Positions 4,391 through 62,235 of a stretch of 64,000 bases of DNA are shown here, one piece after another. Position 1 is the first letter of the stretch. Every line of letters begins with the position of its first letter. Below the pieces are notes generated by a model that made no database searches, was not told the DNA's origin, and saw only the letters and a list, made by a program, of their open reading frames with translations. This DNA comes from Eledone cirrhosa (taxonomy: Eukaryota). Made by a program: the position numbers and the translations under genes. The DNA lies in NCBI GenBank assembly GCA_964016885.1, contig OZ024758.1:11036001-11100000 (forward strand), written 5' to 3'.

Positions 4391-4559
4391 ATGTTGTTGT
4401 TGTTGTTGTTGTTGTTGTTGCTGCTGCCGTCATCGTCTCGCCATCATTTTGGTAGTGGTCGTCGTTTTTCTGTGGTAGTTTGTTCAATGATGACTTCATA
4501 ACATCCAATACTGTTACAGAAGTATCAATAAACATAACTCATTATATATATTATTATAC

Positions 4560-4982
4560 AGCGGTGGATTGGCAGTATCGGTAGAGGGTCGGACGCCATG
4601 CTTTGATGCATAGAGTTACGGCCCTTTTTGATTTGAGCTCAAATCCCGCCGAGGTTAACTTTGCCTTTCATCCTTATGGGGTCGATAAAATAAAGTACCA
4701 GTCACGCACAGGGGTCGATTTAATCGAATTTCCCCTGCCCCCAAATTACTGGCCTTGTCCCTATATAAGAAACCATTATATATATTATTATACAGCGGTG
4801 GAATGGCAGTATCGGTAGAGAGTCGGACGCCATGCTTTGACGCATAGAGTTACGGCCCTTGCCATTCTGAGTTCAAATCCCGCCGAGGCTAACTTTGCCT
4901 TTCATCCTTACGGGGTCGATAAAATAAAGTACCAGTAATGTACTGAGTAATTGCTGGCCTTGTGCCTAAAATAGAAACAATT
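4560..4982 (+). mobile_element. Two tandem young SINE S1 copies (4560-4775 and 4794-4982)
   Basis: A-box-like TGGCAGTATCGGTAGAG, B-box GAGTTCAAATCC, central GCCTTTCATCCTTACGGGGTCGATAAAATAAAGTACCAG; ATTATATATATTATTATACA repeated before, between and after. Confidence 0.9.
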
Positions 4983-5405
4983 ATATATATTATTATACAA
5001 CCATTCATATTACTTATATTACCGATGCTCTTTGGAAAGACTTCGATTTCCCACTCGTTTCAACAGAATCTCCACAAACCTTTGTTTCTTGTCAGAAATC
5101 ATATTTTTTATGGTTTCGTTGAAGTTTCGTTGAAGTGGTGTTGTAAAATAAAACGAAAAAAACCGTTTGTATACATTGGACCAAGGAGACAATATTTCCA
5201 GTGATCTTTCTGGTATATATATATATATATCGTCTGCCATTTATGAGAGGCTTAGTAATGCGCCTCCTCTGGGAGGTGTGTGCCTTAGGTCGCTCCCTAG
5301 TTAGTCGTAATGTTAGTGTCGGCCCTGCAATTGAGGGGCATTTAAACGAGTGGTTCAAGTCAGAGTTTTACGCTTGAGTTTCTCTAATTTGTTTTGTGTG
5401 TGCGC

Positions 5406-15100: not shown

Positions 15101-15221
15101 GAGTAAGTATGAGAATGAGAGTAAAAGAGGAGAAACATAAATTGAGATTCATTCAGAAAAACAAAATGAAGGATGAAAGTTAGGAACGAGAATATGAAAG
15201 AAATAAAGTTATTGGAAAAAA

Positions 15222-15337
15222 TAATTGTTTCTACTTTTGGCACAAGGCCAGCAATTACCTAGTACATTACTGGTACTTTATTTTATCGACCCCGTAAGGA
15301 AGAAAGGCAAAGTGAACCTCGGCGGGATTTGAACTCA
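15222..15337 (-). mobile_element. 5'-truncated SINE S1
   Basis: reverse complement of the S1 consensus from B-box to tail; ATTGGAAAAAATAAT on both sides (15211 and 15337) resembles a target-site duplication. Confidence 0.85.
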
Positions 15338-18850: not shown

Positions 18851-19345
18851 TCAACTGATTAAAATAGTGTTGATTAAAAACATTGTTTCATCAGCGGTCT
18901 TCTCTCTTCTGCAGTGTCTCTTATCACTCCCGTATAATACATGCTGAACAACTTTTACTTTGGTCATGGAAATCTCAGAGCTGACAATAACTTGTTGATT
19001 AAATAACATTTCTGAAGTTTTAATGTTCATTTGTTTACATATTTTGGTTGTTCTTGATTTCTTTTTATTTATGAAAGACAAGTATTGGTACCTTTGATGT
19101 CTGGCATCGACCATTCCTATCCAATCCAGAGCCTTCTCAATTCTGTCGGAGTGAACCTCTCCCAGGTTAACCTTCACCACTTTCTGTTTGGTTTTGGTCA
19201 TGTCAGGAATGTAGCCGTACTCACCATGCTTGGCCAAATGCGGGTTGATGAGGCTATTTAACTCATACTTCAGGTGAATGGCTATTATTGACTCTGAGGA
19301 GTTCATTCGCCCTTTTAACAGCTCTTGTGGTGTTGGTGTTCCCAT
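18851..19345 (-). other. 164-aa non-repetitive ORF of unknown identity, possibly a retroelement ORF1 remnant
   Basis: only long non-repetitive ATG-started ORF in the window; starts immediately after the 106-bp array on the minus strand; no motif I can recognise. Confidence 0.3.
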
Positions 19346-19356
19346 TACCCCCCTCA

Positions 19357-20935
19357 GGGTCTGGTGAGGAGGTGCAGTTTAGTTGTTGATCACTCAACTA
19401 TAAATCCTGTTGTTCTGGGCTACATGGTACCCGTAGCAGGCAGAAGCCTGACATGACCAAACCCTTGTCTGGCGGTGGAGCCGGTTTAGTCACCGACAAT
19501 TCGACCATGAAACAGGTTTTATTGGTTACAAGGTACCCGTAGCAGGCAGAAGCCTGACATGACCAAACCCTTGTCTGGCGGTGGAGCCGGTTTAGTCACC
19601 GACAATTCGACCATGAAACAGGTTTTATTGGTTACAAGGTACCCGTAGCAGGCAGAAGCCTGACATGACCAGACCCTTGTCTGGCGGTGGAGCCGGTTTA
19701 GTCACCGACAATTCGACCATGAAACAGGTTTTATTGGTTACAAGGTACCCGTAGCAGGCAGAAGCCTGACCTGACCAGACCCTTGTCTAGCGGTGGAGCC
19801 GGTTTAGTCACCGACAATTCGACCATGAAACAGGTTTTATTGGTTACAAGGTACCCGTAGCAGGCAGAAGCCTGACATGACCAGACCCTTGTCTGGCGGT
19901 GGAGCCGGTTTAGTCACCGACAATTCGACCATGAAACAGGTTTTATTGGTTACAAGGTACCCGTAGCAGGCAGAAGCCTGACATGACCAGACCCTTGTCT
20001 GGCGGTGGAGCCGGTTTAGTCACCGACAATTCGACCATGAAACAGGTTTTATTGGTTACAAGGTACCCGTAGCAGGCAGAAGCCTGACATGACCAGACCC
20101 TTGTCTGGCGGTGGAGCCGGTTTAGTCACCGACAATTCGACCATGAAACAGGTTTTATTGGTTACAAGGTACCCGTAGCAGGCAGAAGCCTGACATGACC
20201 AGACCCTTGTCTGGCGGTGGAGCCGGTTTAGTCACCGACAATTCGACCATGAAACAGGTTTTATTGGTTACAAGGTACCCGTAGCAGGCAGAAGCCTGAC
20301 ATGACCAGACCCTTGTCTGGCGGTGGAGCCGGTTTAGTCACCGACAATTCGACCATGAAACAGGTTTTATTGGTTACAAGGTACCCGTAGCAGGCAGAAG
20401 CCTGACATGACCAGACCCTTGTCTGGCGGTGGAGCCGGTTTAGTCACCGACAATTCGACCATGAAACAGGTTTTATTGGTTACAAGGTACCCGTAGCAGG
20501 CAGAAGCCTGACATGACCAGACCCTTGTCTGGCGGTGGAGCCGGTTTAGTCACCGACAATTCGACCATGAAACAGGTTTTATTGGTTACAAGGTACCCGT
20601 AGCAGGCAGAAGCCTGACCTGACCAAACCCTTGTCTGGCGGTGGAGCCGGTTTAGTCACCGACAATTCGACCATGAAACAGGTTTTATTGGTTACAAGGT
20701 ACCCGTAGCAGGCAGAAGCCTGACATGACCAGACCCTTGTCTGGCGGTGGAGCCGGTTTAGTCACCGACAATTCGACCATGAAACAGGTTTTATTGGTTA
20801 CAAGGTACCCGTAGCAGGCAGAAGCCTGACATGACCAGAGCAGAGTCTGATGGTGTAGCCTGTTTAGTCACAGACCACTCAACCATGAAGCAGATTGTAT
20901 TGGGCTACATGTTACCTGCAGTAAGCAGAAGCCAT
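19357..20935. repeat. 106-bp tandem array: 13 near-identical units (19426-20803) plus diverged edge units
   Basis: GGTACCCGTAGCAGGCAGAAGCC recurs at 19426, 19532, 19638 ... 20804. Confidence 0.98.
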
Positions 20936-21195: not shown

Positions 21196-21737
21196 ATATG
21201 TGTGCATATATGCATATCAGTTATGTGTGATTGTGTATCTGAGAGTGTATGCAAGTTTCTGAGTCTCTCTTTCACTCTCTCTCTCTCTATATATATATAA
21301 TATATGTGTGTATGTGTGTATGTGTGTGTGTGTCTCTCTCTCTCTCTCTCTGTTTATGTAAGTATTTATGTATATGTTTGCGTGTGTTTATCTTCTTGCC
21401 TGTGGGTATGTATTTATGCATGCGTCTATCTTCGGGTGTCTGTGTGTGTGTGTGTGAGTGTGTGTGTGAATGTGTCTGCGGGTGTCTCTGTGTGTGTGTC
21501 TGTGTGTGTCTCTGTGCGTGTCTGTCTATATGTGTTAAACTCTTATCTTTATTCTACAGAAAACAGAAGAATATATTCCGTCTGACAAATCCTTTTTTCA
21601 AGACAAGTAAAAAGAAAAGCCCCCCCCCTCCCTCCACACCTCCGCCGCCGCTCAATCGTCTTAATACAACGAAAGAAATAATCATAAATACATTTCATCA
21701 TATTATAGAAACCTCTCCCTCCTTCCCCTACACCAGC

Positions 21738-21794
<57 letters not shown>

Positions 21795-21802
<8 letters not shown>

Positions 21803-21982
21803 TGATATTCTACAGGACTAGAACTGTTTCATTCTTTAGAAATCATCAGGAATCTCTGATGATTTCTAAAGAATGAAACAGTTCTAATCCTGTAGAATCT
21901 CATCTATATTAAATATTTTATACTCTGCAATGTATTGAGTACCTTACTTACTGTAATTACCTCCGATTCAACCCGGAATAAC

Positions 21983-21983
<1 letters not shown>
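21795..21983 (+). mobile_element. Family A hammerhead fold-back element flanked by (TA)n
   Basis: 55-bp inverted arms (21795-21849 / 21856-21910) plus a tail; homologous to 30100-30288 and 57198-57378. Confidence 0.85.
21804..21856 (-). ncRNA. Type I hammerhead ribozyme, family A
   Basis: GAGAUUC-CUGAUGA-U-UUC[UAAA]GAA-U-GAA-ACAG[UUCUAGUC]CUGU-A-GAAUAUC; cleavage after GUA; one stem I mismatch. Confidence 0.75.
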
Positions 21984-22025
<42 letters not shown>

Positions 22026-22155
22026 GAAGTTATATTTAATTTGTTGGGATACAACAAGCAAATATTTTTATAACTGATATAAAGCACTCAACAAAATTTT
22101 TGGAGTAAAAATACAATATTTTAACAAATAGAAACTATATTTATAAAACCATATT

Positions 22156-22220
22156 TATTTCATTATACATATTTCAAGGACACCAAAGCAAATTATGGTG
22201 CGCTTTCATCAGATAAAATA
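22156..22220 (-). ncRNA. Type I hammerhead ribozyme, family B (left arm)
   Basis: UAUUUUAU-CUGAUGA-AAGCGCACCA..UGGUGUCCUU-GAAA-UAUGUA-UA-AUGAAAUA. Confidence 0.8.
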
Positions 22221-22338
22221 TAATATAGATCAGTTTTATAAACAAATATTGACATACCCTTAAAAGAATGCGATCATGTCTGTTGGTCGCATTCTTTAAG
22301 GGTATGTCAATATTTGTTTATAAAACTGATCTATATTA

Positions 22339-22403
22339 TATTTTATCTGATGAAAGCGCACCATAATTTAACTTGGTGTCCTTGAAATATGTATAATGAA
22401 ATA
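22339..22403 (+). ncRNA. Type I hammerhead ribozyme, family B (right arm)
   Basis: UAUUUUAU-CUGAUGA-AAGCGCACCA[UAAUUUAACU]UGGUGUCCUU-GAAA-UAUGUA-UA-AUGAAAUA; 8-bp stem I with one G-U pair. Confidence 0.8.
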
Positions 22404-22443
22404 AATATGGTTTTATAAATATAGTTTCCATTTGTTAATATAC

Positions 22444-22486
<43 letters not shown>

Positions 22487-22581
22487 CTAACTCTCTCCCT
22501 CTTTCTCGACGGCCCTGCTTCTCTTTCACACTGTTTTGCGGTGAACACACACACACACATATATATATATACACACACACG

Positions 22582-22639
<58 letters not shown>

Positions 22640-22834
22640 AGTGTATGCTAAACTATCACAGCTAGAGCATTGCTACTAGAGTCTCCTTGCATCCTTTACA
22701 TCACTAGTAAACATCATAAATCATCGTCGGTAAGTGATCATTACTACATTACTAAACCATCATGTCTACTAAACCACTATCACTACTAAATCATCATCAC
22801 TACTAAACCATCATTACTACTAAACCATCATTAC

Positions 22835-22880
<46 letters not shown>

Positions 22881-22884
<4 letters not shown>

Positions 22885-23777
22885 TGACTGGACATTGCCT
22901 AGACATCAGATTGTAGAGATAAGATAAAGATTTGATAAATTGCTGGAAATTATGTATCTATGTATGTATGTGTATATTTATATATGTATATATATATATA
23001 CGTATGTATATATATATATATATATATATACGTACGTATGTATATATATATATATATACGTATGTATATATATATATATATATACGTGTGTATATATATA
23101 TACATGTACGTATGTATATATATATATATACATACGTATATGTATATATATATACATACGTATATGTATATATATATACATACGTATATGTATATATATA
23201 TACATACGTATATGTATATATATATACATACGTATATGTATATATATATACATACGTATATGTATATATATATACATACGTATATATATATATACATACA
23301 TATATGTATATATATATACATACGTATATATATATATATACATACATATATGTATATATATATACATACGTATATATATATATATACATACGTATATATA
23401 TACATACGTATATATATATATATATATACATACGTATATATATATATATATACATACGTATATATATATATATATATACATACGTATATATATATATATA
23501 TATACATACGTATATATATATATATATACATACGTATATATATATATATATATACATACGTATATATATATATATACATACGTATATATATATATACATA
23601 CGTATATATATATATACATACGTATATATATATATACATACGTATATATATATATACATACGTATATATATATATACATACGTATATATATATATACATA
23701 CGTATATATATATACATACGTATATGTATATATATATATACATACGTATATATATATATACATACGTATATGTATAT

Positions 23778-23810
<33 letters not shown>

Positions 23811-23831
23811 CATACATACATATGTATATAT

Positions 23832-23862
<31 letters not shown>

Positions 23863-24141
23863 CATACATACGTATATATATATATACATACATACGTATA
23901 TATATATACATACATACGTATATATATATACATACGTACGTATATATATATACATACGTACGTATATATATATACATACGTACGTCTATATATATATATA
24001 CATATATACATATATACACATATGTACATCTATACATATATAAATATACACATACATACATAGATACATAATTTCCAGCAATTTATCAAATCTTTATCTT
24101 ATCTCTACAATCTGATGTCTAGGCAATGTCCAGTCAAGATA
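22881..24141. repeat. About 108-bp perfect inverted repeat bracketing a 1-kb (TA)n/CATACG compound microsatellite
   Basis: ATCTTGACTGGACATTGCCTAGAC... at 22881 is the reverse complement of ...GTCTAGGCAATGTCCAGTCAAGAT at about 24140. Confidence 0.95.
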
Positions 24142-24409
24142 CATTGAAGACAGTTTTAACTAATTCCTGGATTTTTGTTGATTCTTAATTTTTAGCTTCT
24201 TTGTTTCTTTGATTTCTTCCCACAGACTGGCACCGGTATTTAGTGCTTTGTGAAAGCTGATCTTTTGTCTCAATAAAAGCAATATGATTGAGTTGTTAAT
24301 AAGTTCGATTCTGAATCGCAATCATTAAAAGTCTCGAGTTTGATCCTGCTGTGTGACATCCCGGACCTCTCCTGTAATTTTGTAGTCTTGTATATTACAG
24401 ACTGTGGAG

Positions 24410-24600
24410 ATACGTGGTCTTGTGGTAAAGGTGTTGGAGATACTGCCACAATGTCGTGGGTTCGATCCCTGGACTGGGTTGTTTGTTGCGTTCTTGAGCA
24501 AAACATTCCATTCCACGTTACTCCGCTATACTCAGCTGAAAATGAGTACCAGCAATATCTGGGGATTTAACCCTACAACGGACAGGCATCTGGTCTAGGA
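24410..24600 (+). mobile_element. tRNA-derived SINE family S2
   Basis: A-box-like GTGGTCTTGTGGTAAAGG, B-box GGTTCGATCCC, body TTCTTGAGCAAAACA...CTCAGCTGAAAATGAGTACC. Confidence 0.75.
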
Positions 24601-24748
24601 GGGGGGGGGGGTATAACATGGCTTAGTAGTAATGGTGCAAAACAGTAGGCGAAACTGCAGTCGGGACTTTGAAGAAAAAGTAGGTACATTTTTATCTATT
24701 ATTTCCTCGTATTTATAATTTTATATTATATATATATATATATATATA

Positions 24749-24769
24749 TACAATAAAGTATGTCCATAG

Positions 24770-24808
<39 letters not shown>

Positions 24809-24872
24809 AAAGTATGTCCATAGAAATATATATATATATATATATATATATATTTCTATGGACATACTTTAT

Positions 24873-24913
<41 letters not shown>

Positions 24914-24928
24914 CTATGGACATACTTT

Positions 24929-24979
<51 letters not shown>

Positions 24980-24994
24980 CTATGGACATACTTT

Positions 24995-25000
<6 letters not shown>
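24749..25000. repeat. Five copies of TACAATAAAGTATGTCCATAGAAA, two forward and three reverse, separated by (TA)n
   Basis: direct reading. Confidence 0.95.
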
Positions 25001-25034
<34 letters not shown>

Positions 25035-25272
25035 TAGAAGGGGTATTTAATTTGTCGGAAATCCGACAAATATAAATATAAATGTTTATAACTGATTTAG
25101 AACACTCAACAGTTTCCTGGAGTAAATATTCAATGATATTAAATACATGGAAACTATATTTATAAAACCATATATCCATATATTTTATATTTATAAAACC
25201 ACTATCCAGAGAATATCGAACTGATAAGGTATGATTTTCCTGGGTATGTCTCTATTTATAAAACAAACTTTG

Positions 25273-25336
25273 TATTTTATCTGAAGAAAGTGTACCAAAG
25301 TGTTTTTGGTACCCTTGAAATATATATAATAAAATA
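25273..25336 (+). ncRNA. Type I hammerhead ribozyme, family B variant (element 25032-25385)
   Basis: UAUUUUAU-CUGAAGA-AAGUGUACCAAA..UUUGGUACCCUU-GAAA-UAUAUA-UA-AUAAAAUA; perfect stem I; stem II covaries with 22339 (CACCA/UGGUG vs UACCA/UGGUA). Confidence 0.8.
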
Positions 25337-25574
25337 AATATGGTTTTATAAATATAGTTTCCATTTATTTAATATCATTGTATATATATAGATATATATA
25401 TATACATATACCCACTCATATATGTGTGTGTGTGTGTGTGTGTATTGATAGGGCAATTAAGATTGTTGTCCCAGAATAATTAATGACATATTAAACTTGA
25501 TCTGAAGATTGCTAGTCTCTCGACTGACTTATTAATTATGCTACAATAATTAATCAAAGATCACGATACATCAA

Positions 25575-27327: not shown

Positions 27328-27723
27328 CACACACACACACACATATATATATACACACATATATATACACATACACACACACACATATATATACACACAC
27401 ACACACATATATACACACACACACACATATATACACACACACATATATATACACACACACACACACACACATATTCTTGTTGTCGTCGATGTTAATGTTG
27501 TTGCTGTCGCCGATGTCGATTATTGTTGTTGTTGCCGACATTGTTGTTATTGTTGTTGTCGTTATTTCTCAGTAATAGTTTCTTCATACACCACAGATCA
27601 ATTATGATTCGATAACACCCAATACCGTTACAGAATAGCAATATCCAGATCTCGTTAGCTCTCTCACACACTCAGCTTTTATTTTATTTTACTTTCTATG
27701 ATATATTGCATTAACTGTAATAA

Positions 27724-28160
27724 ATGTTTCTACGTTTGGCACAAGGCCAACAATTTGAAGGGAAATCGACCCCAGTGCCTTACTGGTACTTTATTTTATC
27801 GACCCCCTGTAAGAATGAAAGGTAAAGCTAACGTAGGCAGGATTTGAACCCAGAACGTAAAGGGCCGCATGTCTGACGCTCAGCTGATACTGCCAACCAA
27901 CGCCTTACCAATGTAATAATTGTTTCTACTTTTGGCACAAGGCCAGCAATTATACCAGTGTATTACTGGTACTTTATTTTATCGACCCCCGTAAGGATGA
28001 AAAGCAAAGTTAACTTCGGCGGGATTTGAACTCAGACCACAAAGGGCCGTAACTCTTTGCTGCAAAGCATGGCGTCCGACCCTCTACCGATACTGCCACA
28101 TCCACTTACCAATGTAATAATGGTTTCTGGTTTAGGCACAAGGCCAATAATTTGAGGGGA
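27724..28160 (-). mobile_element. Cluster of tandem SINE S1 copies (27724-27905, 27918-28105, partial 28118-28160)
   Basis: reverse complement of the S1 consensus; CTTACCAATGTAATAAT repeated at the junctions. Confidence 0.85.
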
Positions 28161-29367: not shown

Positions 29368-29744
29368 TGTGTATCAGGTTTGATGGTCTTTATTCTCACT
29401 CGTTCACGATTTCACCGAACTTATATTCATGGAAATTTGGGACTTGACTCGTTCTTCCTCACTTTTCGTTGCTTCACCATCTTTGTTTGTTTACACTCTC
29501 GCTGTCCCCTTTATTTACGTGTCCCAACGACTTTCTTTAGCCGTTGCTCGCACCAACCGGAGGTATATGGTCTTTAAAGCGAAGAAATACCTGTGATGGT
29601 TGGAAGATCACTGATGAAGGACCACTTTATTCATATGTAACCCATTTGCAACCACGCAGCACGTTTATTCTCATATTTATTTATATATATATTGAGTACT
29701 CTGGTGCGTTATGGTCCATCTGGTTCTTTACCACACCTCCTTCG

Positions 29745-29785
<41 letters not shown>

Positions 29786-29813
29786 ATCAAAAGATGGTTA
29801 AATGAGTTCCATG

Positions 29814-29862
29814 TATTTTATTATGCGCATTTCAAAAACATGTGTTTTCATCAGATAAAATA
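29814..29862 (-). ncRNA. Minimal type I hammerhead ribozyme
   Basis: UAUUUUAU-CUGAUGA-AAACACAUGUUUUU-GAAA-UGCGCA-UA-AUAAAAUA; perfect 8-bp stem I, palindromic AUGCGCAU stem/loop III. Confidence 0.85.
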
Positions 29863-29888
29863 GGAGGACATGATATGAAGGTTAAAAA

Positions 29889-29941
29889 CACTTGTGGATA
29901 GTGCAGTTTTAAATCAACATATATATATATATATACACTTG

Positions 29942-29972
<31 letters not shown>

Positions 29973-30066
29973 TTGTGGATAGTGCAGTTTTAAATCAACA
30001 TATATATATATACACTTGTATATATATATATATATATATACACTTGTGGATAGTGCAGTTTTAAAT

Positions 30067-30072
<6 letters not shown>
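29889..30072 (+). repeat. Three copies of ACACTTGTGGATAGTGCAGTTTTAAATCAACA separated by (TA)n
   Basis: direct reading. Confidence 0.95.
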
Positions 30073-30102
<30 letters not shown>

Positions 30103-30186
30103 AGTTAGTCCGGGTTGAATCGGAGGTAACCACAGTAAGTAAGGTACTCAATACATAGCAGAGTATAAAAGTTTTAATATAGATGA

Positions 30187-30235
30187 GATTCTACAGGACT
30201 AGAACTGTTTCGTTCTTTAGAAATCATCAGGAATC
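30187..30235 (-). ncRNA. Type I hammerhead ribozyme, family A (fold-back element 30100-30288)
   Basis: GAUUC-CUGAUGA-U-UUC[UAAA]GAA-C-GAA-ACAG[UUCUAGUC]CUGU-A-GAAUC. Confidence 0.8.
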
Positions 30236-30310
30236 CTGATGATTTCTAAAGAATGAAACAGTTCTAGTCCTGTAGAATCTCATCTATATATATATATATG
30301 AGATATATAC

Positions 30311-30460: not shown

Positions 30461-30516
30461 ATATATATATATACACATATATATACACATACACACATAT
30501 ATATATATATATATAT

Positions 30517-30711
30517 AACGAAGGAAATGTGGTAAGGAACCAGGTGGACCATAACGCACCAAAGTACTCAATACTTGGGGTAGTAGAGTGGGTGATAGGA
30601 ACCAGTAAGACCCCGACGGCTGAGCTCAAGCCGTTTCGACGGCTAATTCTGGACTAGTCCAGAATTAGCCGTCGAAACGGCTTCAGCTCAGCCGTCGGGG
30701 TCTTACTGGTT

Positions 30712-30716
<5 letters not shown>
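30517..30716 (-). mobile_element. Family C fold-back element carrying the 3' half of a hammerhead in both arms
   Basis: about 120-bp palindrome centred on ACTAGT (30653-30658); minus-strand arm reads CGAA-ACGGC[UUGAGCUCA]GCCGU-C-GGGGUC. Confidence 0.8.
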
Positions 30717-34093: not shown

Positions 34094-34267
34094 ATCTAGA
34101 TTATATTTTAACCTGTAATCCATGTTTCATTTCTGTCGCACCTCATTTCTCCCATCCCCTCTCTTTGTGATATTTGGGCTTACCTTATTCATATTATGTT
34201 TTTGCATGTCAGTTAGATTCAAACTTACAATGATTGGCATTATATATATATAATGCCTATCATTGTT

Positions 34268-34398
34268 ACGTCCCTTTACAGCCTGAGTTCAAATCCCGCC
34301 GAGGTTGACTTTGCCTTTCATCCTTACGGGGTCGATAAAATAAAGTACCAGTAATGCACTAGTTAATTGCTGGCCTTGTGCCTAAAGTAGAAACAATT
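34268..34398 (+). mobile_element. 5'-truncated SINE S1
   Basis: matches the S1 consensus from GTTACGTCCCTTTAC to GTAGAAACAATT. Confidence 0.9.
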
Positions 34399-34863
34399 AT
34401 TTTATATGAGACATAATTAAATATATATATATAGAGAGAGAGGGTGAGAGAGAGAAGGAGATTGAAGAGAGGGGGGTAGAGAGAGAGGGGGTAGGAGGGG
34501 GGGGGGGGTGATAATTGAGACGAGGAGACAGATTGACAGGCGACAGAAGAAACATGACTGGCTGCCAGTCAGGTAAGAACAAGTTTAATTAGGTCTGATA
34601 TTACTGCTCAGGTGTTCCATAATTGCTTTCCAGCAGTCTCTCCTGTTGGTCCTCCCCCTCTCACCTCCACCCCACCCCAGCCTCCTCCTCTCACCACCAC
34701 CCCAGCCTCCTCTTCTCACCACCCTTAATTGTAATAAGTAATGTTGTAAATCACCACCACCACCACCACCACCAACACAGTGTAATTACAACCGTTACAG
34801 TCTCTCACCAAAACCTCCATCTGCTCTTCAATCATATTTCTATGGAAATTAAGAGGTCGTATG

Positions 34864-35081: not shown

Positions 35082-35239
35082 AATGAAGGAAATGTGGTAA
35101 GGAACCAGATGGACCATAACGCACCAGAGTACTCAATACTTAGGGTAGTAGAGTGGGTAATAGGAAAATGTTTGACCCCGACGGCAGAGCTCAAGCAGTT
35201 TCGACGGCTATTTTTGGACTGAAATAGCCGTCGAAACGG
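35082..35239 (-). mobile_element. Family C hammerhead-half fold-back element
   Basis: homologous to 30517-30716; CCGTTTCGACGGCTATTT..AAATAGCCGTCGAAACGG. Confidence 0.8.
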
Positions 35240-35249
35240 TGTGTGTATG

Positions 35250-41626: not shown

Positions 41627-41629
<3 letters not shown>

Positions 41630-41775
41630 GAAAAGAGTCAGGACACCGACAGCTGAGCTCCGGCCATTTCGACAGCTAGATCCGAACTAAGATATTACCC
41701 ACTCTACTACTCTAAGTATTGAGTACTCTGGTGTGTTATGGTCCACCTGGTATCTTACCACATTTTCTTTGTTAT
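41627..41775. mobile_element. Family C element with its two parts in opposite orientation (5' inversion)
   Basis: hammerhead-half segment 41630-41690 joined to the reverse-oriented tail ATTACCCACTCTACTAC...ACCACATTTTC. Confidence 0.75.
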
Positions 41776-41820
41776 ATATAAATATATATATATATATATA
41801 TGTATATAAGTAATAATGAT

Positions 41821-42030
41821 AAATGTGAAGACTAAAATCCAAAGAGGGCTCGATAAGGATAAATATATATCAAATATATAAGAACCCTAGAGCAAATATT
41901 TATTAAAATAACAGATTAAAGTTTAAGCAAAGAATATCTGCTTTCATCCTTAACGGGATCTTCAGAAGATCCATTAATGATGAAAGCAGCGATTCTTTGC
42001 TTGAACTTTAATCTGTTATTTTAATAAATA
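41821..42030 (-). mobile_element. Family D hammerhead fold-back element; its tail recurs inverted at 61363-61408
   Basis: 66-bp inverted arms around GATCTTC-A-GAAGATC; minus strand UU-CUGAAGA-UCC[CGUUAA]GGA-U-GAA-AGCA[GAUAUUCUU]UGCU-U-AAAC; stem I truncated by the inversion. Confidence 0.7.
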
Positions 42031-43138: not shown

Positions 43139-43142
<4 letters not shown>

Positions 43143-43184
43143 GGCTTCTACAAGACTAGAACTGTTTCATTCGAAGGAAATCAT
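43139..43184 (-). mobile_element. Family A hammerhead fragment
   Basis: AUGA-U-UUC[CUUC]GAA-U-GAAACAGUUCUAGUCUUGUAGAAGCC; 5' part of the core is missing. Confidence 0.7.
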
Positions 43185-43840: not shown

Positions 43841-44127
43841 TATTCCAGTATTTGTACCTTCTTGTTATATCTTCTTCATCACCCACTTATTCCTGAGAAG
43901 GTCGTGGGGGCAGAGTCCTTAAACATGCCCTCCAGCAGGTCCTCGCAGGACTCTTTATGTTCACAGTTCAGTTCAAATCCTACTCTGGTCAAACATTTCT
44001 TTTCATCCTCCCTGTGTCAATAAAATAAGGTACCAGTCAACTACTGGGGTAGATATTGACTTCCCCTCTCCTCCACCAAAATTGCTGACCTTCTCCTTAC
44101 ATTAGATACCATTATTATCATAAATTA

Positions 44128-44318
44128 GGGCAGTGGATTGGCAGTATCAGTAGAGGGTCGGACGCCATGCTTTCTAGCATAGAGTTACGTCCCTTTACGG
44201 ACTGAGTTCAAATCCCTCCAAGGTTAACTTTGCCTTTCATCCTTACGGGGGTCGATAAAATAAAGTACCAGTAATGTACTGGGTAATTGCTGGCCTTGTG
44301 CCAAAAGTAGAAACAATT
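44128..44318 (+). mobile_element. Full-length young SINE S1 with target-site duplication; an older copy lies at 43965-44110
   Basis: complete consensus GGGCAGTGGATTGGCAG...GTAGAAACA flanked by ATTATCATAAATTA on both sides. Confidence 0.92.
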
Positions 44319-44697
44319 ATCATAAATTATGTTTATTACAACCACAATCATGTTTTTCTCAAGTGTAGAATCCACACCAAACAGTAACCTATATTTTAAT
44401 TGGTCTCCAGGAGGGAACTAACTTAGATTCTACATTAGCACCTTGCAAAGTCTAAAGCCTGTCTAAAGCCTTTAGGGGAGGTTTTGTTGTTGTTGTTTTA
44501 CAGAAATTAGGGTGCTTAGTGATAAGATTTAATTAATGTAATTATTTATAAAGTAAACAATAACAAGTTGTTTATTTTACGAAAAGAGAGACAAAAAAAA
44601 TGTAGTAAAATAAAAAGGAAAGAATATTAAAAAATTTCCGTTACATTTTCAGATAATCTCTGTTATTAGTTCACAAGAAGACTATTATTATTAGTAT

Positions 44698-44733
<36 letters not shown>

Positions 44734-47107
44734 GTGTTGGTGCTGAAACTTCAACAATGTTTGGTTTCTTTGATTTTTTTATATAATTTATTCCAGTATT
44801 TAGTAACAATAGGTTAAATGTTTGGTGTGGAAACTGTTGGACTTATCTGAGGGAACTGTAACCTCATATAAGAACTGACACTGTGATAATAGTGATGGTG
44901 GTGGTTGTGATGGTGACAATGGTGGTGATGGTAGTGGTGGTGGTGGTATGGGGGTGGTGGTTGTATTGGTATGGAGGTGGTGGTAGTGGTGATGATAGTG
45001 TTTATGGTAATAATGATGATGATGATGGTGGTGGTGGTGGTGGTGGTTTAGAGAAAGAAACAAAAGGGAGGGGTTAGAATAAACAATGATTAAATAAATG
45101 TATAAATATTTGTTAAATGAAAAAATACCTTAGAAAGTTGCTTGATGAAGTTTTATTCCAAGAGGTTTTACACATTAAGATCTTTAATTCTTCCAATAAA
45201 TATTCTAGAGAAACTGAAGCAAAACTTTGAATATATCATAAAACGGTTACATAGATTCTTGTTGTTATATATCTGAGTATTTCTCTGTGTAGTATAATTG
45301 TCTAGTGTGTATGTGTAGTGTATGTAGTTGTGTAGTATGTGAGTGGTGTGTGTGTGTGTGTGCGTAACAGAGAGAATGAAAAAGAAAGAAGAGTTCTCTT
45401 CCACTATGTAGTCTAAAGAGTTATTTCCCCTTACAATGTTTCAAAATGTAACTTACAACACACCAGACGTCGCAGTGCTGGTATCACAGGTCTGGTAGGT
45501 TTAAGGGAGATAACTCTATAAATATCTGCTCAAATAATCACAATATTCTTCGTTACATCATTATATATAGAGAGAGAGGGAATACTATCAATAAAATGAT
45601 TGATAAACACTGCTACAAGCCGTGTACGTTTCAAGAGTTGGTATAGAGAGTAAATCGACACTTTAGAATATCTCTCTATTTCAGATCATCGAGAGGAAAT
45701 GACACTTTCGCTAACTGTCGTAAATCTTTGATAATTTCTCTTAAGTTTGTAACATTCGCTATATAAATAAAGCCTGATCCTGCAAACCTATCATCAAATC
45801 GATTCCGGACATGACTATCCCGTCTTTTTTTTTTTTTGTTTTTATCTGTCCGACTTTCATACCAGATATATACAGAAATTGTCAAATGTGTCATTTTTAA
45901 TTCATGATCTTAAATCGAAAGAACGTCGATATTTTAGTTTATGGCACCGTACCCCTTCTCTCCACATCTACTCTGGGATAGTGACAGGCAAACAAATGAC
46001 TAACATAATTTTTAATTCTCCACCCCCTCAAGAAAACGTGTGTGTGTATATATAAATATATACACACACACAGAGCTGGACAGCAGCAAGTCTTCAAAGA
46101 ACCCCCCCCCCCCTCCTCACACACACCTCAAGCAAGTGTTTCAGCCTTTAACTTTCTATAACACATTAAACAACTTACACCTCTCCAGTGGGGGACTAAA
46201 AGAAATTTTGTGAATTTATCACATATTTTAATTTGTAAAATATTAATAAATACATAATAAATAATGATGGAATCTTATTCAGCTTGGCAATGAGTATTGA
46301 GTTCTTTTAACTCGTGATTTAATATATAAGTGGTTGAATTTCCATACAGAACCAGCTGGACAGATTTTATGGGTAAAACCAGCTTGGCAGGAGACCCAGA
46401 ACAAGATGGTTAGATAACATCCATGAGTTCAGTTGGTCTCAATTGAAGCGAGTTGCTTCTGATAGGACCTTGTGGATGGTATCCCTGGGAGGTCTCCCTG
46501 TGGACTTAGCCTCCACAAACCTCCTCCCAGGAATAAGTGGACAAAGAAGAAAAACCAGCGTAGATAGATAGATAGATAGATAGACAGATAGATGCATAAG
46601 CTGAAGACTAGAAGGAACAGAAACATATCAGTTTGGAATCAAAGTTTATTTCTTTTTACATGGAAGAATGTGTGTGTGTATGTGTACATGTTTGTGAGTG
46701 TATGTGTACATGTTTATGAGTGTATGTGTATACACATGCATGTGTGAATATGTAACTGTTTGTTTGTTTTATTAGTTTACCCAAGGAGTTAAGGGTAGTG
46801 TCCAGGACCCGATTAAGGGTCTCTGGGACTAAGTAAACCAAATCTTGCCCCGAATGTTTGCAACAGCGGGAACACTACAAAACACACCTGTGGACAGGGC
46901 GGTGGTGTTAAACCAGGTGATAGCGGTCTATGTGTGTATGTGTCTGTGTGTAATGATTAACTACATTTGTGTATGTGACAATGTATATCAAGTACTCAAT
47001 ATGGATGATAGTGATACTATTTATACCAATATCTATATATGAATGAACATCTTTTAATAACCCAGCTGTAAGTGTGCATATGTGTACACAGATATATATA
47101 TATATAT

Positions 47108-47304
47108 CAGATAGGGTGTGGTAAAAACCAGCTAGACCATAACCCACCAGAGTACTCAATACTTGGGGTAGTAGAGTGGGTAATATGAAAAGATTCGGGA
47201 CACTGACAGCTGAGCTCTGGCCATTTTGACAGCTAGATCCAAACTAAAGCATATCTAGCTGTCAAAACGGTCAGAGCTCAGCTGTCGGAGTCCTGAATCT
47301 TTTC

Positions 47305-47307
<3 letters not shown>
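47108..47307 (-). mobile_element. Diverged family C fold-back element
   Basis: tail CCAGAGTACTCAATACTTGGGGTAGTAGAGTGGG plus inverted arms around AGCTAGAT..ATCTAGCT. Confidence 0.8.
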
Positions 47308-47343
<36 letters not shown>

Positions 47344-50008: not shown

Positions 50009-50042
<34 letters not shown>

Positions 50043-50044
<2 letters not shown>

Positions 50045-50232
50045 CAAAGGAATTGTGGTAAGGAACTAAATGGACCATAACGCACCAGAGTACTCAATAC
50101 TTAGGGTAGTAGAGTGGGAAATAGGAAAACGTATGACCCCGACAGCAGAGCTCAAGCCGTTTCGAAGACTATTTCCAGAAATAGCCATCGAAACGGCTTG
50201 AGCTCTGCCGTCGGGTCATACTTTTTCCTATA
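50043..50232 (-). mobile_element. Family C fold-back element
   Basis: homologous to 30517 and 35082; arms around CTATTTC-CA-GAAATAG; CGAAACGGCTTGAGCTCTGCCGTCGGG. Confidence 0.8.
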
Positions 50233-50844
50233 TATATATATGAGAGATAGAGAGAATAAGATATGTAGAAGATATTAAATATTTTGGCAAACAAACTTTA
50301 GAAAGGAAAAGATATAAAAAAAACTCCTAAAAAGCTGTCCAGAAAGTTCTTCATACAATTCTGGATACAAATTACTGAAACACATGATTAGAATTGAAGC
50401 AGGGGCAGCAGATATGGATTCTAGATAGCTCTGATTTATTAGAAGTGATATTGTCGAGGTCAGTTAAATGACACTGAGACACAAGTTGAAGATTAATTAA
50501 GCTGAGTTGGTTGGTCGGTTGATGATCGATTAGGTCAGTTGGATGAAGGTGACTATGTTGTAAGTCCTGAAACAGCCAGTAACTTCAGAAAATAACACTG
50601 ATGATGTATGCGTCCTGTCCAGGGTGTTTTGCAAGAAAAGAGCCACCAAGAACAAAGAAATGATAGAAAGAGGACATAAATATTTCTCTAGCTAAAAGAA
50701 GCTGTCTGGTAGAGTCATAATCAGAACGATGTTACTAGGACTCCACGATATTTTACTGATGCAGACAATATTTGCATCCATAGATTTACAACAAACATGA
50801 AAAGATTAATGATTTATTATTCTTATCCCCAACAATTGTAAATA

Positions 50845-55704: not shown

Positions 55705-55921
55705 GATTTCTACAATGGGCACAAGGCCAGTAATTTAGGGGGAGGGGAAAGTCGATTAAATCTACCCCAGTGCATTACTGGTACTTTATTTTATCAACCC
55801 CCGCAAGGATGAAAGGCAAAGCTAACCTCAGCGGGATTTGAACTCAGATCATAAAGGGCCATAACTCTATGCTGCAAAGCATGGCGTCCGACCCTCTACC
55901 GATACTGCCAATCCACTGCCC
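55705..55921 (-). mobile_element. Full-length SINE S1, long-tail variant
   Basis: reverse complement of the consensus, in an (AAT)n context. Confidence 0.9.
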
Positions 55922-56916
55922 TTTATAATAATAATACTAATAATAACAATGGTAATAATAATAGTAATAATATTAATAATAAGTACAGCACAAGAAGGAA
56001 GACATGAACAAGTGATGAAATTCATACAAACTTAACTGCAGTTTTTTTGTTTGTTTTTTTTGTCGTTTTTTTTTTTGTTTTTACATGAACATGAAACGAC
56101 CCCCTAGAGAGATATGACGGGGGAGGTGTGGTGTGTGTGTGTATATATATAAGGATCAATTTGTGTAGTAGTGATAGTAGCGCTGTATGTTTTCTGCTGG
56201 TCATAGCTGACTCTGTGTTCCCTTCATTGATTCGTCACTAAACAGAAGAAAGCTATAAAGAAAAATAATGAAATATAACAGTTTTGTTGTTGTTTTGTTT
56301 CATTATTGTTGTTTTTTTAATGAATAAAGTAAACAAAAAAATAGAATAAGAAATAAAATAGAATAAGAAAACATTACAGCAATACGAGAGGAAACATATC
56401 ATTGATGATGTCACATGTGTGTGACGAAAGAACTCTGAGAGACTATATACATATATATATGTATATAAACTGGTGGTCAATCAATGATAAACATTAATTT
56501 CTAGCTGAATTAATTATAGAAATATAAAATATACTGAAGAAAAAACCAACCCAACCCAAATCAAACCAAACAGTGAGTATGTTTTACTATATATTTCTGG
56601 CAATATTATAACAACATGACCCTCCCCAAATATAACACAAAAAAAAACAACAAAGGATTACGTAAAATTTTATAAATAAAAACTGAAATTGGTTTCGTTT
56701 TTATATTTTTAAAAATATTTGAAATGTATGAGTGAGACACCGTCATCTGGTCTGGCTTGTCTTACAACTGGGAAACTCGTCTAACAAGAAGCATTTTAAA
56801 GCCATTTTCCATGCTTAAGCTGTATATATATATATCACTTTATTTCACATTGCTCCAGTTTACTCAGGTGTAGAAATGAGATGATAGGGACTAGTGTCCA
56901 TATCATTCCACTGCAA

Positions 56917-57120: not shown

Positions 57121-57284
57121 AGCCAGAATCAGTTCCCGTCCCACCCTTGCAAGCAGGGAAAAAGCGGACGTAAAATGATGATGATATATATATATATAAG
57201 TTTATCCCGGGTTCAATTGGGGGTAATCACAGTAAGTAAGGTACTCAATACATAGCAGAGTATAAATATTTAATATAGAAATGG

Positions 57285-57331
57285 CTTCTACAGGAGTAGA
57301 ACTGTTTCATTCGGGAGAAATCATCAGGAAG
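57285..57331 (-). ncRNA. Type I hammerhead ribozyme, family A variant (element 57198-57378)
   Basis: CUUC-CUGAUGA-U-UUC[UCCC]GAA-U-GAA-ACAG[UUCUACUC]CUGU-A-GAAG; stem I covaries with the other copies (AUUC/GAAU vs CUUC/GAAG). Confidence 0.75.
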
Positions 57332-57373
57332 ATGATTTCTCCCGAATGAAACTGTTCTAGTCCTGTAGAAGCC

Positions 57374-57450
<77 letters not shown>

Positions 57451-58339: not shown

Positions 58340-58845
58340 CTTGTTTGTGGTCATGTGTTGGTCATGTTAGTTTCAGAACTTGGACTGCAAGCATGTAATG
58401 AATCTGCTGGTGTTGTGCTTGCCGTCGCTGTGTTACTACTGAAAGTTGTATCTGCCGGTGTGGTGCTACTGAAAGTTGTATCTGCCGGTGTGGTGCTACT
58501 GAAAGTTGTATCTGCCGGTGTGGTGCTACTGAAAGTTGTATCTGCCGGTGTGGTGCTACTGAAAGTTGTATCTGCCGGTGTGGTGCTACTGAAAGTTGTA
58601 TCTGCCGGTGTGGTGCTACTGAAAGTTGTATCTGCCAGTGTGGTGCTTGCTGTCGCTGTGTTACTACTGAAAGGTGTAGGAGGAAATTCTCCTGCTGGCG
58701 TTTCTGGTGGTGCTGGTTCAGGAATCTCTGTTGGGCAATCTTTGATATGTGGCATTTCTGGTGAGTAAGTGGCCATATCAAAGCTTGCAGTAGACAGACG
58801 CTCACTCGGAGGAGACACTGTAAGCAGTTGATCATCACTGTTCTG
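58340..58845 (-). CDS. Probable exon encoding a Thr/Ser/Pro-rich, mucin-like repeat segment (TTFSSTTPAD)n
   Basis: minus-strand acceptor TTTTCTAATTTCTGTTCAACAG|CAG with branch-like CTAAT, donor AAG|GTATGA at 58340, GC-richer open frame QNSDDQLLTVSPPSER..., 30-bp in-frame repeat at 58439-58618; TGA 11 nt before the donor. Confidence 0.6.
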
Positions 58846-58968
58846 CTGTTGAACAGAAATTAGAAAACACCGTAAAGAATGAAATGAAATGAAAACAATG
58901 AAGTTTACATCTCACATCTAAATAGGTTTGACTGGTCTTCAATGAAGTCACATCTCATAGATTTCTGG

Positions 58969-59517: not shown

Positions 59518-60079
59518 TAAAGCAACATGAAATGAAGTGTCTTCCTTAAAAACCATATATATATACATGTGTGTGTGTTTATATTTGTCTAAACATAGTG
59601 CAGGTAATAATATATCTACAGACATATTATATAGCAAGGTGTTTACATCTGTGTATATATATACAGTGTAGGTTAAAAATCTATATATATATATATATAT
59701 ATCATATATACATCATATATATATATATATATATCATATATACATCATATATATATATATATATATCATATAACATTGCAACAAAACACTATTAATGCTT
59801 CAATAATTTATTTCAATATATTAGTGTCTTGTGTGATGAAGTAGAGTTAAGGACAAAGTCTAATATACTCTGGATGAAGTCACTCATTGGATAAGAAAAT
59901 CAATATCTTACTGATAAAAGGTTTCTTAAAAATATCTTCCATTGTATCAACATTCTTCTAATATATCAATATATATAGATCTGTTTAAAATTCCTATGTT
60001 CTTACACTTGCTAAGTCAGCTGAACTGGAACTAACTGTCTTAGCTATTTACTGCAGAATTTATATAGAAAAATAATAAT

Positions 60080-60268
60080 AATTGTTTCTACTTTTGGCAC
60101 AAGGCCAGCAATTACCCAGTACATTACTGGTACTTTATTTTATCGACCCCGTAAGGATGAAAGGCAAAGTTAACCTCGGCGGTATTTGAACTCAAACCGT
60201 AAAGGAACGTAACTATGCTAGAAAGCATGGCGTCCAACCCTCTACCGATACTGCCAATTCACCGCCCC
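60080..60268 (-). mobile_element. Full-length young SINE S1
   Basis: reverse complement of the consensus. Confidence 0.92.
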
Positions 60269-60281
60269 ATAATAATAACAA

Positions 60282-60716
60282 TAATGAAAATTATTGTGTA
60301 CAGTGCTCAGGTGCGCTACAACTCATCAAAGGTGCATGTATAGTTATAGTACATAGAATAATGTACAAATGTCAGGAAAGTGAATAGTGTATGAATCCTG
60401 ATATACACACAGACACACATACCACACACCATTATATAAACATTATTATATATACACACTATTTATATAATGAAAATGAATGTGTACAGTGTTCAGGTGC
60501 ACTACAACTCATCAAATGTGCATGGAATAATGTACAAATGACAGGAAAGTGAACAGTGTATGAGTTATGATATATACACAGACACACCACACAATATTAT
60601 ATAAACTGTTATATATACACACACCACTTATATAATGAAAATGAATGTATACTATGCTCAGGTGCACTACAACTCATCAAATGTGCATGTATAGTATATA
60701 GAATAATGTACAAATA
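60282..60716. repeat. Diverged tandem repeat with 165-185-bp units, about 2.5 units
   Basis: AATGAAAAT...TCAGGTGC(A/G)CTACAACTCATCAAA at about 60282, 60469 and 60634. Confidence 0.85.
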
Positions 60717-61068
60717 TCATAATCTTCATTCTTTAACTATTATTACTCCAAGTATAACCTGCATAAAAATTACCGCGAACTCACTGCATAGCTATGGAAG
60801 CATCTTGTCGAGTCAAAAAAAAGCCGTACATTAAAACTACCCACGACGCAGAGTACTCACAACCTCTAACTTGATTACCTATAACGATAACTTGTTATCC
60901 CATATCAATATATATATATTTAGATCTGTTTAGAATTTCTATGTTCTTACACATGCAAAGTCAGCCAAGCTGGAACTATCTGCCTTAGCTGCAGAATTCT
61001 TATGTTAAAATATATATATATATATACGATATATTAACAAATGGAAACTATATTTATAAAACGATATT

Positions 61069-61133
61069 TATTTCATTATACATATTTCAAGGACACCAAG
61101 TTAAATTATGGTGTGCTTTCATCAGATAAAATA
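61069..61133 (-). ncRNA. Type I hammerhead ribozyme, family B (element 61028-61340, 5' part inverted relative to the tail)
   Basis: UAUUUUAU-CUGAUGA-AAGCACACCA[UAAUUUAACU]UGGUGUCCUU-GAAA-UAUGUA-UA-AUGAAAUA. Confidence 0.8.
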
Positions 61134-61632
61134 TAATATAGAGCAGTTTTATAAATAAATATTGACGTACCCTTAAAGAATGCGACCATTTCTGTTGGAA
61201 GCTCCCGGATATATTAATATATCGTATTTTTATATGTTAATATATCGTATTTTTACGCCAATAATTTGTTGAGTGCTTTATATCAGTTATAAAAATATTT
61301 GCTTGTTGTATCCCAACACTTTAAATAGGACTTCTACATTTATATATATATATATATATTTCATATATATTTATCCTTATCGAGCCCTCTTTGGATTTTA
61401 GTCTTCATATATATATTTATATATATATATATATATATATATACTGTGCTATTCTTTTACTGGACTGTGGCCATGCTAGGGCACCACCTTCATATAGTCA
61501 ATCATATCGACCTCAGTACTTAGGTTATCTGTTTCAAGTCTAGTACTTATTTTTATTGATCTCGTTTTATTTTTGACAAACTACCAAGTTATGGGGTATA
61601 AAACCGAGACACGATCATAAATATAGACTTGT

Positions 61633-61685
<53 letters not shown>

Positions 61686-62235
61686 TATATATATACACAC
61701 ACACACATATATATATACACACACACACATACACATATATACACACACACACACACATATATATACACACACACATATATATATATATATACACACACAC
61801 ATATATATATATATACACATATATATATATATATACACATATGCACATATACACACATAAACATATACACACACAGATAAACACATATGTATATACACAC
61901 ATATACACGCACACACATACATATACAGGCACATACATGTATATAAACACACACACACAATCATCATCATCGTTATAACATCTGCTATATATATTCATTA
62001 TGTAGCTAAGTGGTGAGTCTTGTTACTCTGGAGTTTCATCTGTGGTTGACACAACTGAAGGGTCCTCCCAACCCTTTGTTTGGCAAGATCTCTACGACTG
62101 GATGCCCTTCCTATCACCAACCACTTTACAGAGTGTACTCGGTGCATTTATCATGAAGATCACCAACACTAGGGGGCTGTAATGTCCTTGATACAACTGA
62201 AGGGTCCTCTCAAACCTTTGTTACAATATATATAT

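Follow-up and report, generated by a model that had tools for sequence, protein, structure and literature searches.

Insertions of Penelope-like elements (PLEs) combine an inverted, 5´-truncated copy with a one-sided tail of 30–40 bp, hammerhead ribozymes in the repeat (pLTR) and a bias towards microsatellites (PMC8557442). Dual hammerheads lying 100–700 bp apart on opposite strands have been ascribed to truncated PLEs, and their cleavage was low and dimer-dependent (PMC4209133). Paired hammerheads on opposite strands are thus already known in print (PMC4209133, PMC8557442). The PLE protein nicks and extends both target strands, two reverse-transcription start sites delimit the tail, and the hammerhead is protein-assisted, as demonstrated in vitro for one lizard PLE (PMC11167929). 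Tandem retrozymes have been defined in PMC7229834 and bioRxiv 10.64898/2026.07.22.740005. In a comparison of RNA editing, octopus and frog ranked top for hyper-editing and near-perfect dsRNA; the frog value was explained by a palindromic repeat, and octopus was omitted from the repeat analysis (PMC5625713, Porath et al.). Octopus editing was also found to be the highest in bioRxiv 10.1101/2020.01.19.911685. A literature search, with subscription papers, Repbase and Dfam mostly outside its coverage, returned, among the papers listed, no title or abstract opening on octopus hammerhead ribozymes of the kind described here, and nothing relevant on Penelope twin priming with inversion or on non-autonomous palindromic Neptune elements.

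The locus analysed here is a tailed palindrome (22022–22446) in a window of 64,000 nucleotides, the term window denoting the whole stretch of DNA under analysis. It is probably a 5´-truncated, inverted insertion of a Penelope-like retrotransposon repeat (pLTR), formed by what would be two reverse-transcription primings in the manner of L1 twin priming, with hammerheads that are predicted to be inactive in place. The locus would then be an ordinary transposon scar of a described kind. The preliminary description, made from the sequence, missed this probable identity of the element; nine insertions in the window, this one included, consist of a tail and a palindrome and lie in (TA)n-type repeats.

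Anatomy of the palindrome and its hammerhead motifs

A 320-bp palindrome with two arms of about 160 bp had been proposed for this locus, and the structure is real. The insertion, assigned to family B of four repeat families (A to D), has (TA)n at both outer ends and comprises the following features.

21984–22022, unstranded: left target flank, (TA)n microsatellite (repeat annotation; contigs of the family end here in TA or GA repeats)
22023–22112, minus strand: one-sided tail of about 91 nt, continuous with the long arm (palindrome measurement)
22113–22276 (164 nt), minus strand: long, tail-bearing arm (palindrome measurement)
22156–22220, minus strand: type I hammerhead motif of the left arm, predicted cleavage after 22164
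22274–22286, unstranded: junction, with a 7-nt loop (22277–22283) and a 3-nt microhomology (22274–22276 with 22284–22286)
22284–22446 (163 nt), plus strand: short arm, stopping at the second fixed end of the family (contigs of the sequencing runs end at 22436/22441 and pass into TA repeats)
22339–22403, plus strand: type I hammerhead motif of the right arm, predicted cleavage after 22395
22450–22484, unstranded: right target flank, (TA)n microsatellite (repeat annotation)

The whole palindrome measures 334 bases and carries a hammerhead motif on each strand. Its arms align with 156 matches, 7 mismatches and one 1-base gap, and thus differ at 8 places. The predicted fold has a minimum free energy of −242.2 kcal/mol (z = −32.6), and 0 of 100 shuffles were as stable. 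The unpaired tail (22022–22112, about 91 nt), which the preliminary interval had included, lies to the left of the left arm only. It holds an RCTC..GAGY motif pair, defined post hoc, that also occurs in families A, C and D. An ungapped palindrome scan missed this palindrome, which has a one-base gap near its centre, as well as a short one at 35082.

Sixteen public sequencing runs were found, of which 11 share some of the stretch and three share half or more of its words; four of the 16 were compared (X1, X4, X12 and X14). No RNA run was among those found to share the stretch, which carries no information on expression. At the junction, position 22274 is T here and C in 17 of 17 X1 contigs and in 47 of 54 X14 reads; with this family letter, the 3-nt microhomology is restored across the 7-nt loop. 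The arm differences include three adjacent letters in loop II, as had been noted. These differences had been taken as a sign of genomic age. The structure does look genomic. The loop II argument is a weak one: nearly all contig depth at 22188 has the left-arm letter (depth is not copy number), which makes this letter a common family variant instead of a private mutation and leaves the loop II difference with little force as a sign of age. Among arm mismatches, 14 of 27 are transitions, with no detectable one-way bias resembling editing.

A fold-back read or an assembly artefact at the locus would agree with the observation that no contig or read listed from the compared runs spans 22022–22446 or shows its exact centre. 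Such an origin is scarcely credible, given that the arms are not identical, the outer ends match the fixed ends of the family, the build is common to eight other palindromes, and a comparable symmetric joint is found in two studies. The palindrome itself is confirmed in the sequence as a real feature.

A strict type I descriptor (CUGANGA, stem II, GAAA, stem III, UH, stem I), applied to both strands of the window, gave five matches: the two arm motifs, 25273–25336, 61069–61133 and 29813–29862. On both arms, the CUGANGA core, GAAA and UH are present with stems I, II and III in type I order. In the family B hammerheads, stem I is U-rich/AU-rich and has 8 bp, stem II is long (3 + 6 bp around a mismatch), loop III is self-complementary, and the predicted cleavage triplet is AUA. 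Stem III consists of two A-U pairs and a tetraloop, and its closing costs about 3 kcal/mol (−6.3 vs −9.2). The 10.1–11.1 pair is A-U, not G-C, in all four B hammerheads. The 15.1–16.1 segment is weakly self-complementary (−2.2 kcal/mol, and −3.2 for the copy at 25273). When the stems of the four B copies are taken together, 76 of 76 cells are paired and one change is two-sided (C-G to U-A); this covariation does not exceed that of shuffles (133 of 500 reach it, with four copies only). The CUGAAGA core and stem II covariation ascribed to the 25273 copy are both present, the latter as this one two-sided change, which is not above shuffles.

Rfam at the gathering threshold returned 0 matches and no hammerhead. 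At E ≤ 10, the right arm (22290–22440) gave four weak, unrelated matches and no hammerhead, and 21700–25500 gave 245 matches, of which the 150 listed are miRNA-type models on hairpins and TA repeats. Rfam covers minimal PLE-type hammerhead variants poorly. The claim of a 'complete' hammerhead on each strand was thus exact in motif and coordinates, and completeness has to be qualified by the 2-bp stem III, the A-U pair at 10.1–11.1 and the missing Rfam match.

Predicted folding and genomic context

Transcription in either direction gives one sense hammerhead inside a long hairpin, as originally described, and the antisense arm is transcribed before the sense hammerhead whichever the direction. 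In equilibrium folding, which does not model kinetics, the inner stem I pair and the 10.1–11.1 pair both have a pairing probability of 0.000 when the antisense arm is present, even if the RNA ends at the end of the hammerhead. Upon removal of the antisense arm, these values are 0.43–0.45 and 0.93–0.94, respectively. Since each sense hammerhead follows its antisense arm in the transcript, no folding is predicted for either ribozyme, suggesting that both hammerheads are inert at this locus. The preliminary description did not consider this antisense-first order, and hence the predicted inactivity.

The host is an octopod, as judged from a single exon. The ORF at 58354–58851 (minus strand) matches uncharacterised Octopus proteins along half of its length at 77% identity, with 11 of 12 matches in O. 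vulgaris, O. bimaculoides and O. sinensis; this bears out the cephalopod host suspected earlier. Its coding part is listed as follows.

58354–58842, minus strand: last coding exon of an uncharacterised octopus gene, outside the element (protein similarity)

The exon carries a 10-residue repeat expansion that the listed Octopus homologues do not have. A search of the window for further exons of this gene returned none. The stop codon and the palindrome are 36 kb apart, with the palindrome on the far side, and no exon was found around it, so the intronic position that had been assigned to it is only a possibility. A donor-like splice site 11 nt after the stop (about 58339, minus strand) suggests a spliced 3´ UTR, and a long 3´ intron that reaches the palindrome is possible via this site. 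The family B hammerhead at 61069–61133 (minus strand) is located inside the probable last coding intron of the gene ending at 58354. It is in sense orientation with no full antisense arm, and folding predicts partly formed stems (0.23 and 0.85). By this folding model, it would be the copy most able to cut the host pre-mRNA.

Selection for a regulatory device, either an antisense-locked ribozyme or an editing switch on a host transcript, could be seen in a near-perfect 160-bp duplex in a lineage of very high A-to-I editing (PMC5625713), and the donor-like site leaves an intron here possible. However, the palindrome is one of thousands of family variants and one of nine palindromes in 64 kb, and it is located 36 kb past the sole stop codon found. 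The junctions of these variants are arbitrary, and there is no sign of orthologous conservation; on these grounds, a selected switch was rejected as highly improbable.

The window contains several further repeats. A GC-rich tandem array of a 106-bp unit (19421–20933, 14.3 copies, 97% matches) adjoins a 175-codon open frame (18854–19378, minus strand) that has no Pfam match. A 68-bp perfect inverted repeat (22883–22950 and 24071–24138) encloses a 1.1-kb TA-rich microsatellite and could form a long hairpin. An abundant SINE-like dispersed repeat is found in both orientations at 4540–5000, 15217–15326, 27716–28160, 34257–34407, 44110–44336, 55707–55923, 60062–60287, 62226–62442 and other positions; ARAGORN returned 0 genes and thus no tRNA in this repeat.

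Family copies and the origin of the palindrome

Families A, C and D were found by self-comparison of the window and inspection, and nine palindromes were measured with hand-set bounds. The eight palindromes besides 22113–22446 belong to families A, C and D. The related insertions are as follows.

21795–21985, unstranded: family A palindrome with a 75-nt tail, adjoining the family B palindrome
30099–30292 and 57196–57380 (also listed, 43140–43184): other family A elements
25034–25383, plus strand: family B copy 2, with an inverted tail piece (25034–25173), a junction and a sense arm with hammerhead (25273–25336)
61024–61337, minus strand: family B copy 3, with a sense arm with hammerhead (61069–61133), a junction and an inverted tail piece (61227–61337)
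30516–30716, unstranded: family C palindrome with a 79-nt tail, centred in hammerhead stem-loop II
35082–35242, 47106–47308 and 50042–50234: other family C palindromes
41627–41772: family C non-overlapping copy
29690–29745: family C tail-only copy
41808–42028, unstranded: family D palindrome with its centre in the hammerhead core and a tail of 91 nt

All nine palindromes have a tail at one end only, which is 75–91 nt long in eight of them; the ninth (35082) has a 16-nt short arm with no fixed outer end. Outside simple repeats, the ungapped scan detected seven long palindromes, each of which belongs to family A, C or D. An RCTC..GAGY-like pair, a post hoc pattern, is present in 12 of 12 tails examined and is predicted to form a hairpin in only some. 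As read from the sequence, the hammerhead cores of families A and D have a U-U closure of stem II, those of family A (two at 21795–21985) do not include the 5´ strand of stem I, and family C retains the 3´ half of the hammerhead, in which the triplet is GUC and loop III is palindromic. The family B palindrome is the sole one of the nine in which both arms reach past stem I, and it therefore contains two whole hammerheads. A family D tail-only piece (61352–61415) abuts the family B copy at 61337. A solo short hammerhead (29813–29862, minus strand) lies between TA runs, with a loop III self-duplex of −11.9 kcal/mol, and is followed by a short tandem unit at 29888–30099.

The three family B copies in the window share a plan that runs from one TA repeat through the inverted tail strand, the junction and the sense arm to another TA repeat. 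Copy 2 is about 80% identical and has the CUGAAGA core, and the arm of copy 3 is 97% identical to the short arm of the palindrome. The only difference in plan is the reach of the tail strand, which passes the short-arm end by about 20 nt in the 61024 copy and by about 40 nt in the 25034 copy and continues through the whole hammerhead in the 22022 copy. The palindrome is the long extreme of this plan, and the inverted order is the rule. The copy at 61028 does have its ribozyme part inverted relative to the tail, as reported earlier; it is no exception, the 25034 copy and the right arm of the palindrome having the same order.

Family B is high-copy and diverse in the public runs: family pieces amount to 6493 contigs in X1, 26 contigs in X4, 28952 RAD reads in X14 and 1 read in X12, the last from about 1% of that run, and the sample behind X1 may be the one from which the window itself comes. 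In X1, X4 and X14, both ends are fixed, at 22025 and at 22436/22441, and run into TA repeats; most target ends are (TA)n, whereas (CT)n, (GA)n and (GT)n ends are few. Upstream of 22284, 38 X1 contigs run on and match the 61024 copy, which indicates that the arm is 5´-truncated. The left arm is joined to the right arm at many different positions. Of 15 junctions, nine depart from mirror symmetry by no more than 30 nt (permutation p = 0.008, uniform p = 0.003), with the qualification that the junctions are those selected and displayed by the tool and that library fold-back chimeras could inflate symmetry. These 15 comprise 10 of the 15 listed 'skip' joints (32 in all) and 5 of the 12 further listed joints (32 in all); five on opposite strands, three back-jumps and four duplicates were dropped. 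An exactly symmetric joint, 22220–22339, is found in one X1 contig and in six X14 reads with two starts, which come from different studies. Thousands of X14 reads have loose ends at 22180, 22185 and 22367, pointing to more family B subgroups with a different stem-loop II. Scans of metagenome contigs with the family B and C patterns gave 0 matches each, as did a scan of viral contigs with the family B pattern.

The link to PLEs rests on anatomy, and membership of a PLE clade is putative. The PLE traits present are the inverted 5´-truncated copy adjoining a sense copy, the tail at one end only (9 of 9 palindromes), the hammerhead in the repeat with a self-complementary, albeit weak, loop III, and the bias towards microsatellite or AT-rich targets. 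Two traits are absent: the 30–40 bp tail, which is 91 nt here and 75–91 nt in 8 of 9 palindromes, and the G10.1-C11.1 pair of the minimal PLE hammerhead consensus, which is A-U in four B copies. Among 150 ORFs of the window (the 148 longer ones of 231 filtered ORFs plus 2 added), Pfam detected no RT, GIY-YIG or other real domain, and weak low-complexity matches fell below the cut-off. A MITE, or a DNA transposon of the fold-back type that duplicates a TA target, would likewise be short, AT-rich, palindromic and TA-flanked. This candidate is contradicted by the 91-nt one-sided tail, which makes the inverted repeat non-terminal, and by a centre that varies between copies; moreover, the arms contain a hammerhead and many copies are non-palindromic, leaving it close to negligible.

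In the proposed mechanism, a PLE-type protein acting in trans would nick both strands of a (TA)n target. One nick would prime cDNA synthesis at the outer start site of the RNA and yield the tail, and the other would prime at a second site about 90 nt further in and yield the short arm. Both cDNAs would be extended 5´-ward through the hammerhead and stop at about the same place, either the 5´ end of a short RNA or a stall at RNA structure, and would then be joined head to head via the 3-nt microhomology. An early stop of the first cDNA would give a tail plus an inverted arm, as in the 25034, 61024 and 41627 copies, and both cDNAs running on would give a palindrome. The ribozyme may serve the RNA cycle of the parent, probably as a dimer or with protein help; dimeric PLE hammerheads were reportedly described by Lunse, Weinberg and Breaker in 2017. 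A read-through transcript would present the antisense arm first and close into about 160 bp of duplex; if the locus is transcribed, this duplex would be an incidental substrate for ADAR or Dicer.

The same PLE-type element could instead have formed the palindrome by fold-back, in which a stalled cDNA primes on itself and copies itself, and an endonuclease or bound protein fixes the end of the second arm. The 3-nt microhomology and 7-nt loop at 22274–22286 would make a feasible hairpin primer, and the family C centres are located in a natural stem-loop II. Partner arms are always of the same subgroup, and minority letters at 22316 and 22358 are common to both family B arms; these shared letters fit one-strand copying equally well, and the early-ending short arm of the 35082 copy fits fold-back better. 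Symmetric joints are also obtainable as library fold-back chimeras, which counts against two primings. Conversely, fold-back alone cannot yield the 25034, 61024 and 41627 copies, in which the arm sequence is absent from the tail strand; such copies with little or no overlap of tail and arm need two primings or a later deletion. The 0-nt loop at the family C junction 30655/30656 is hard to fold and fits the annealing of two strands. In addition, self-copied arms should start identical, whereas the left-arm loop II letter, a common family variant, is missing in the right arm. Partner arms are mutually strictly nearest in only 2 of 7 palindromes in the window, and the short B arm has fewer differences from the 61024 copy (5 of 158) than from its own partner (6 plus a gap). 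Two primings are favoured since they explain the one-sided tail, the fixed short-arm end, and the non-overlapping and symmetric copies together, and fold-back, the main rival, is regarded as unlikely; both origins are inferred.

A solo non-LTR retrozyme, that is, a type I hammerhead short tandem repeat spread via circular RNA and inserted by PLE machinery, would also be short, ORF-less and high-copy. The 2-bp stem III and tetraloop resemble the hammerheads of PMC7229834, monomers are common, and a derivation from pLTRs has been proposed (bioRxiv 10.64898/2026.07.22.740005). In contrast, none of 18 relaxed hammerhead cores in the window stands in a head-to-tail array, no monomer-length back-jump occurs among the joints listed, and a PLE-type tail and inversion characterise all copies, which renders this origin rather improbable. 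A tandem retrozyme array was rejected: no head-to-tail units of 150–450 bp are found in the window or among the joints listed.

Comparison with described elements

The closest described systems are the EN+ PLEs (Penelope/Poseidon, Neptune, Nematis and Hydra; PMC8557442). They are alike in the inverted truncated copy adjoining a sense copy, in the tail at one end, the repeat hammerhead and the microsatellite targets (these targets being named there for Neptune and Naiad), and differ in a tail of 30–40 bp compared with 75–91 nt and in that no ORF was seen here; whole insertions in the window are only 150–430 bp. The longer tail widens the range described for PLEs. The dual minimal hammerheads of Schistosoma mansoni and of a Cotesia bracovirus PLE are on opposite strands, as here, and the hammerheads described with them share with family B a long stem II, a palindromic loop III and a U-rich/AU-rich stem I (PMC4209133). 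They have G-C at 10.1–11.1, whereas family B has A-U there and an 8-bp stem I. Octopus is not named in two supplement files of that paper.

Poseidon PAc of the green anole (PMC11167929) likewise inserts into AT-rich targets and has a tail between two fixed ends. Its ORF begins in stem II, with start sites 111–118 nt into it; in contrast, family B has no ORF after the hammerhead, and the spacing of its ends is about 90 nt. The two-start-site model of that study could be tested in genomes on thousands of copies, in which the ends are fixed and the junctions vary. Non-LTR retrozymes are, like the families here, short, non-coding and PLE-related with a type I hammerhead, and axolotl HHR_Amex2 offers a precedent for the U-U closure of stem II found in families A and D (PMC7229834; bioRxiv 10.64898/2026.07.22.740005). 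However, retrozymes are arranged head to tail, and the copies here are inverted, with no tandem array seen.

The Octopus Naiads (Naiad_Obim and Naiad_Ovul; supplement of PMC8557442) share the Octopus host, the (TA)n preference, the inverted copies and the tail. Naiads are described as old remnants in cephalopods that do not have canonical hammerheads, and the full canonical cores present here led to the rejection of this clade. Two motifs of the present families gave 0 matches in the supplement text, which was searched in one orientation and in which line breaks could hide a match.

The single locus matters little, and the palindrome is mainly of interest as a possible source of dsRNA for octopus editing enzymes. 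Palindrome arms cover 1151 of 64000 bases (1.8%) of this one window, which was chosen for such features, and this share is not the same measure as the dsRNA content of PMC5625713. The arms could supply the substrate for octopus hyper-editing, and their share makes this source testable with existing RNA-seq. We tentatively propose, as a possibility with the odds against it, that several short PLE-derived families of octopods enter (TA)n as near-perfect hairpins that silence their own ribozyme, are the main source of octopus dsRNA and hyper-editing, and keep, in their two fixed ends and symmetric junctions, a genome-scale record of two-site priming. The nearest parallel is the palindromic Harbinger repeat of Xenopus tropicalis, an ADAR target that folds on itself with no need of a neighbouring inverted copy (PMC5625713). 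Harbinger is a DNA transposon with a palindromic consensus and has been shown to be edited; the palindromes here, unlike Harbinger, are likely made anew at each insertion. If the proposal is true, the octopus hairpin families would be the counterpart of this frog repeat.
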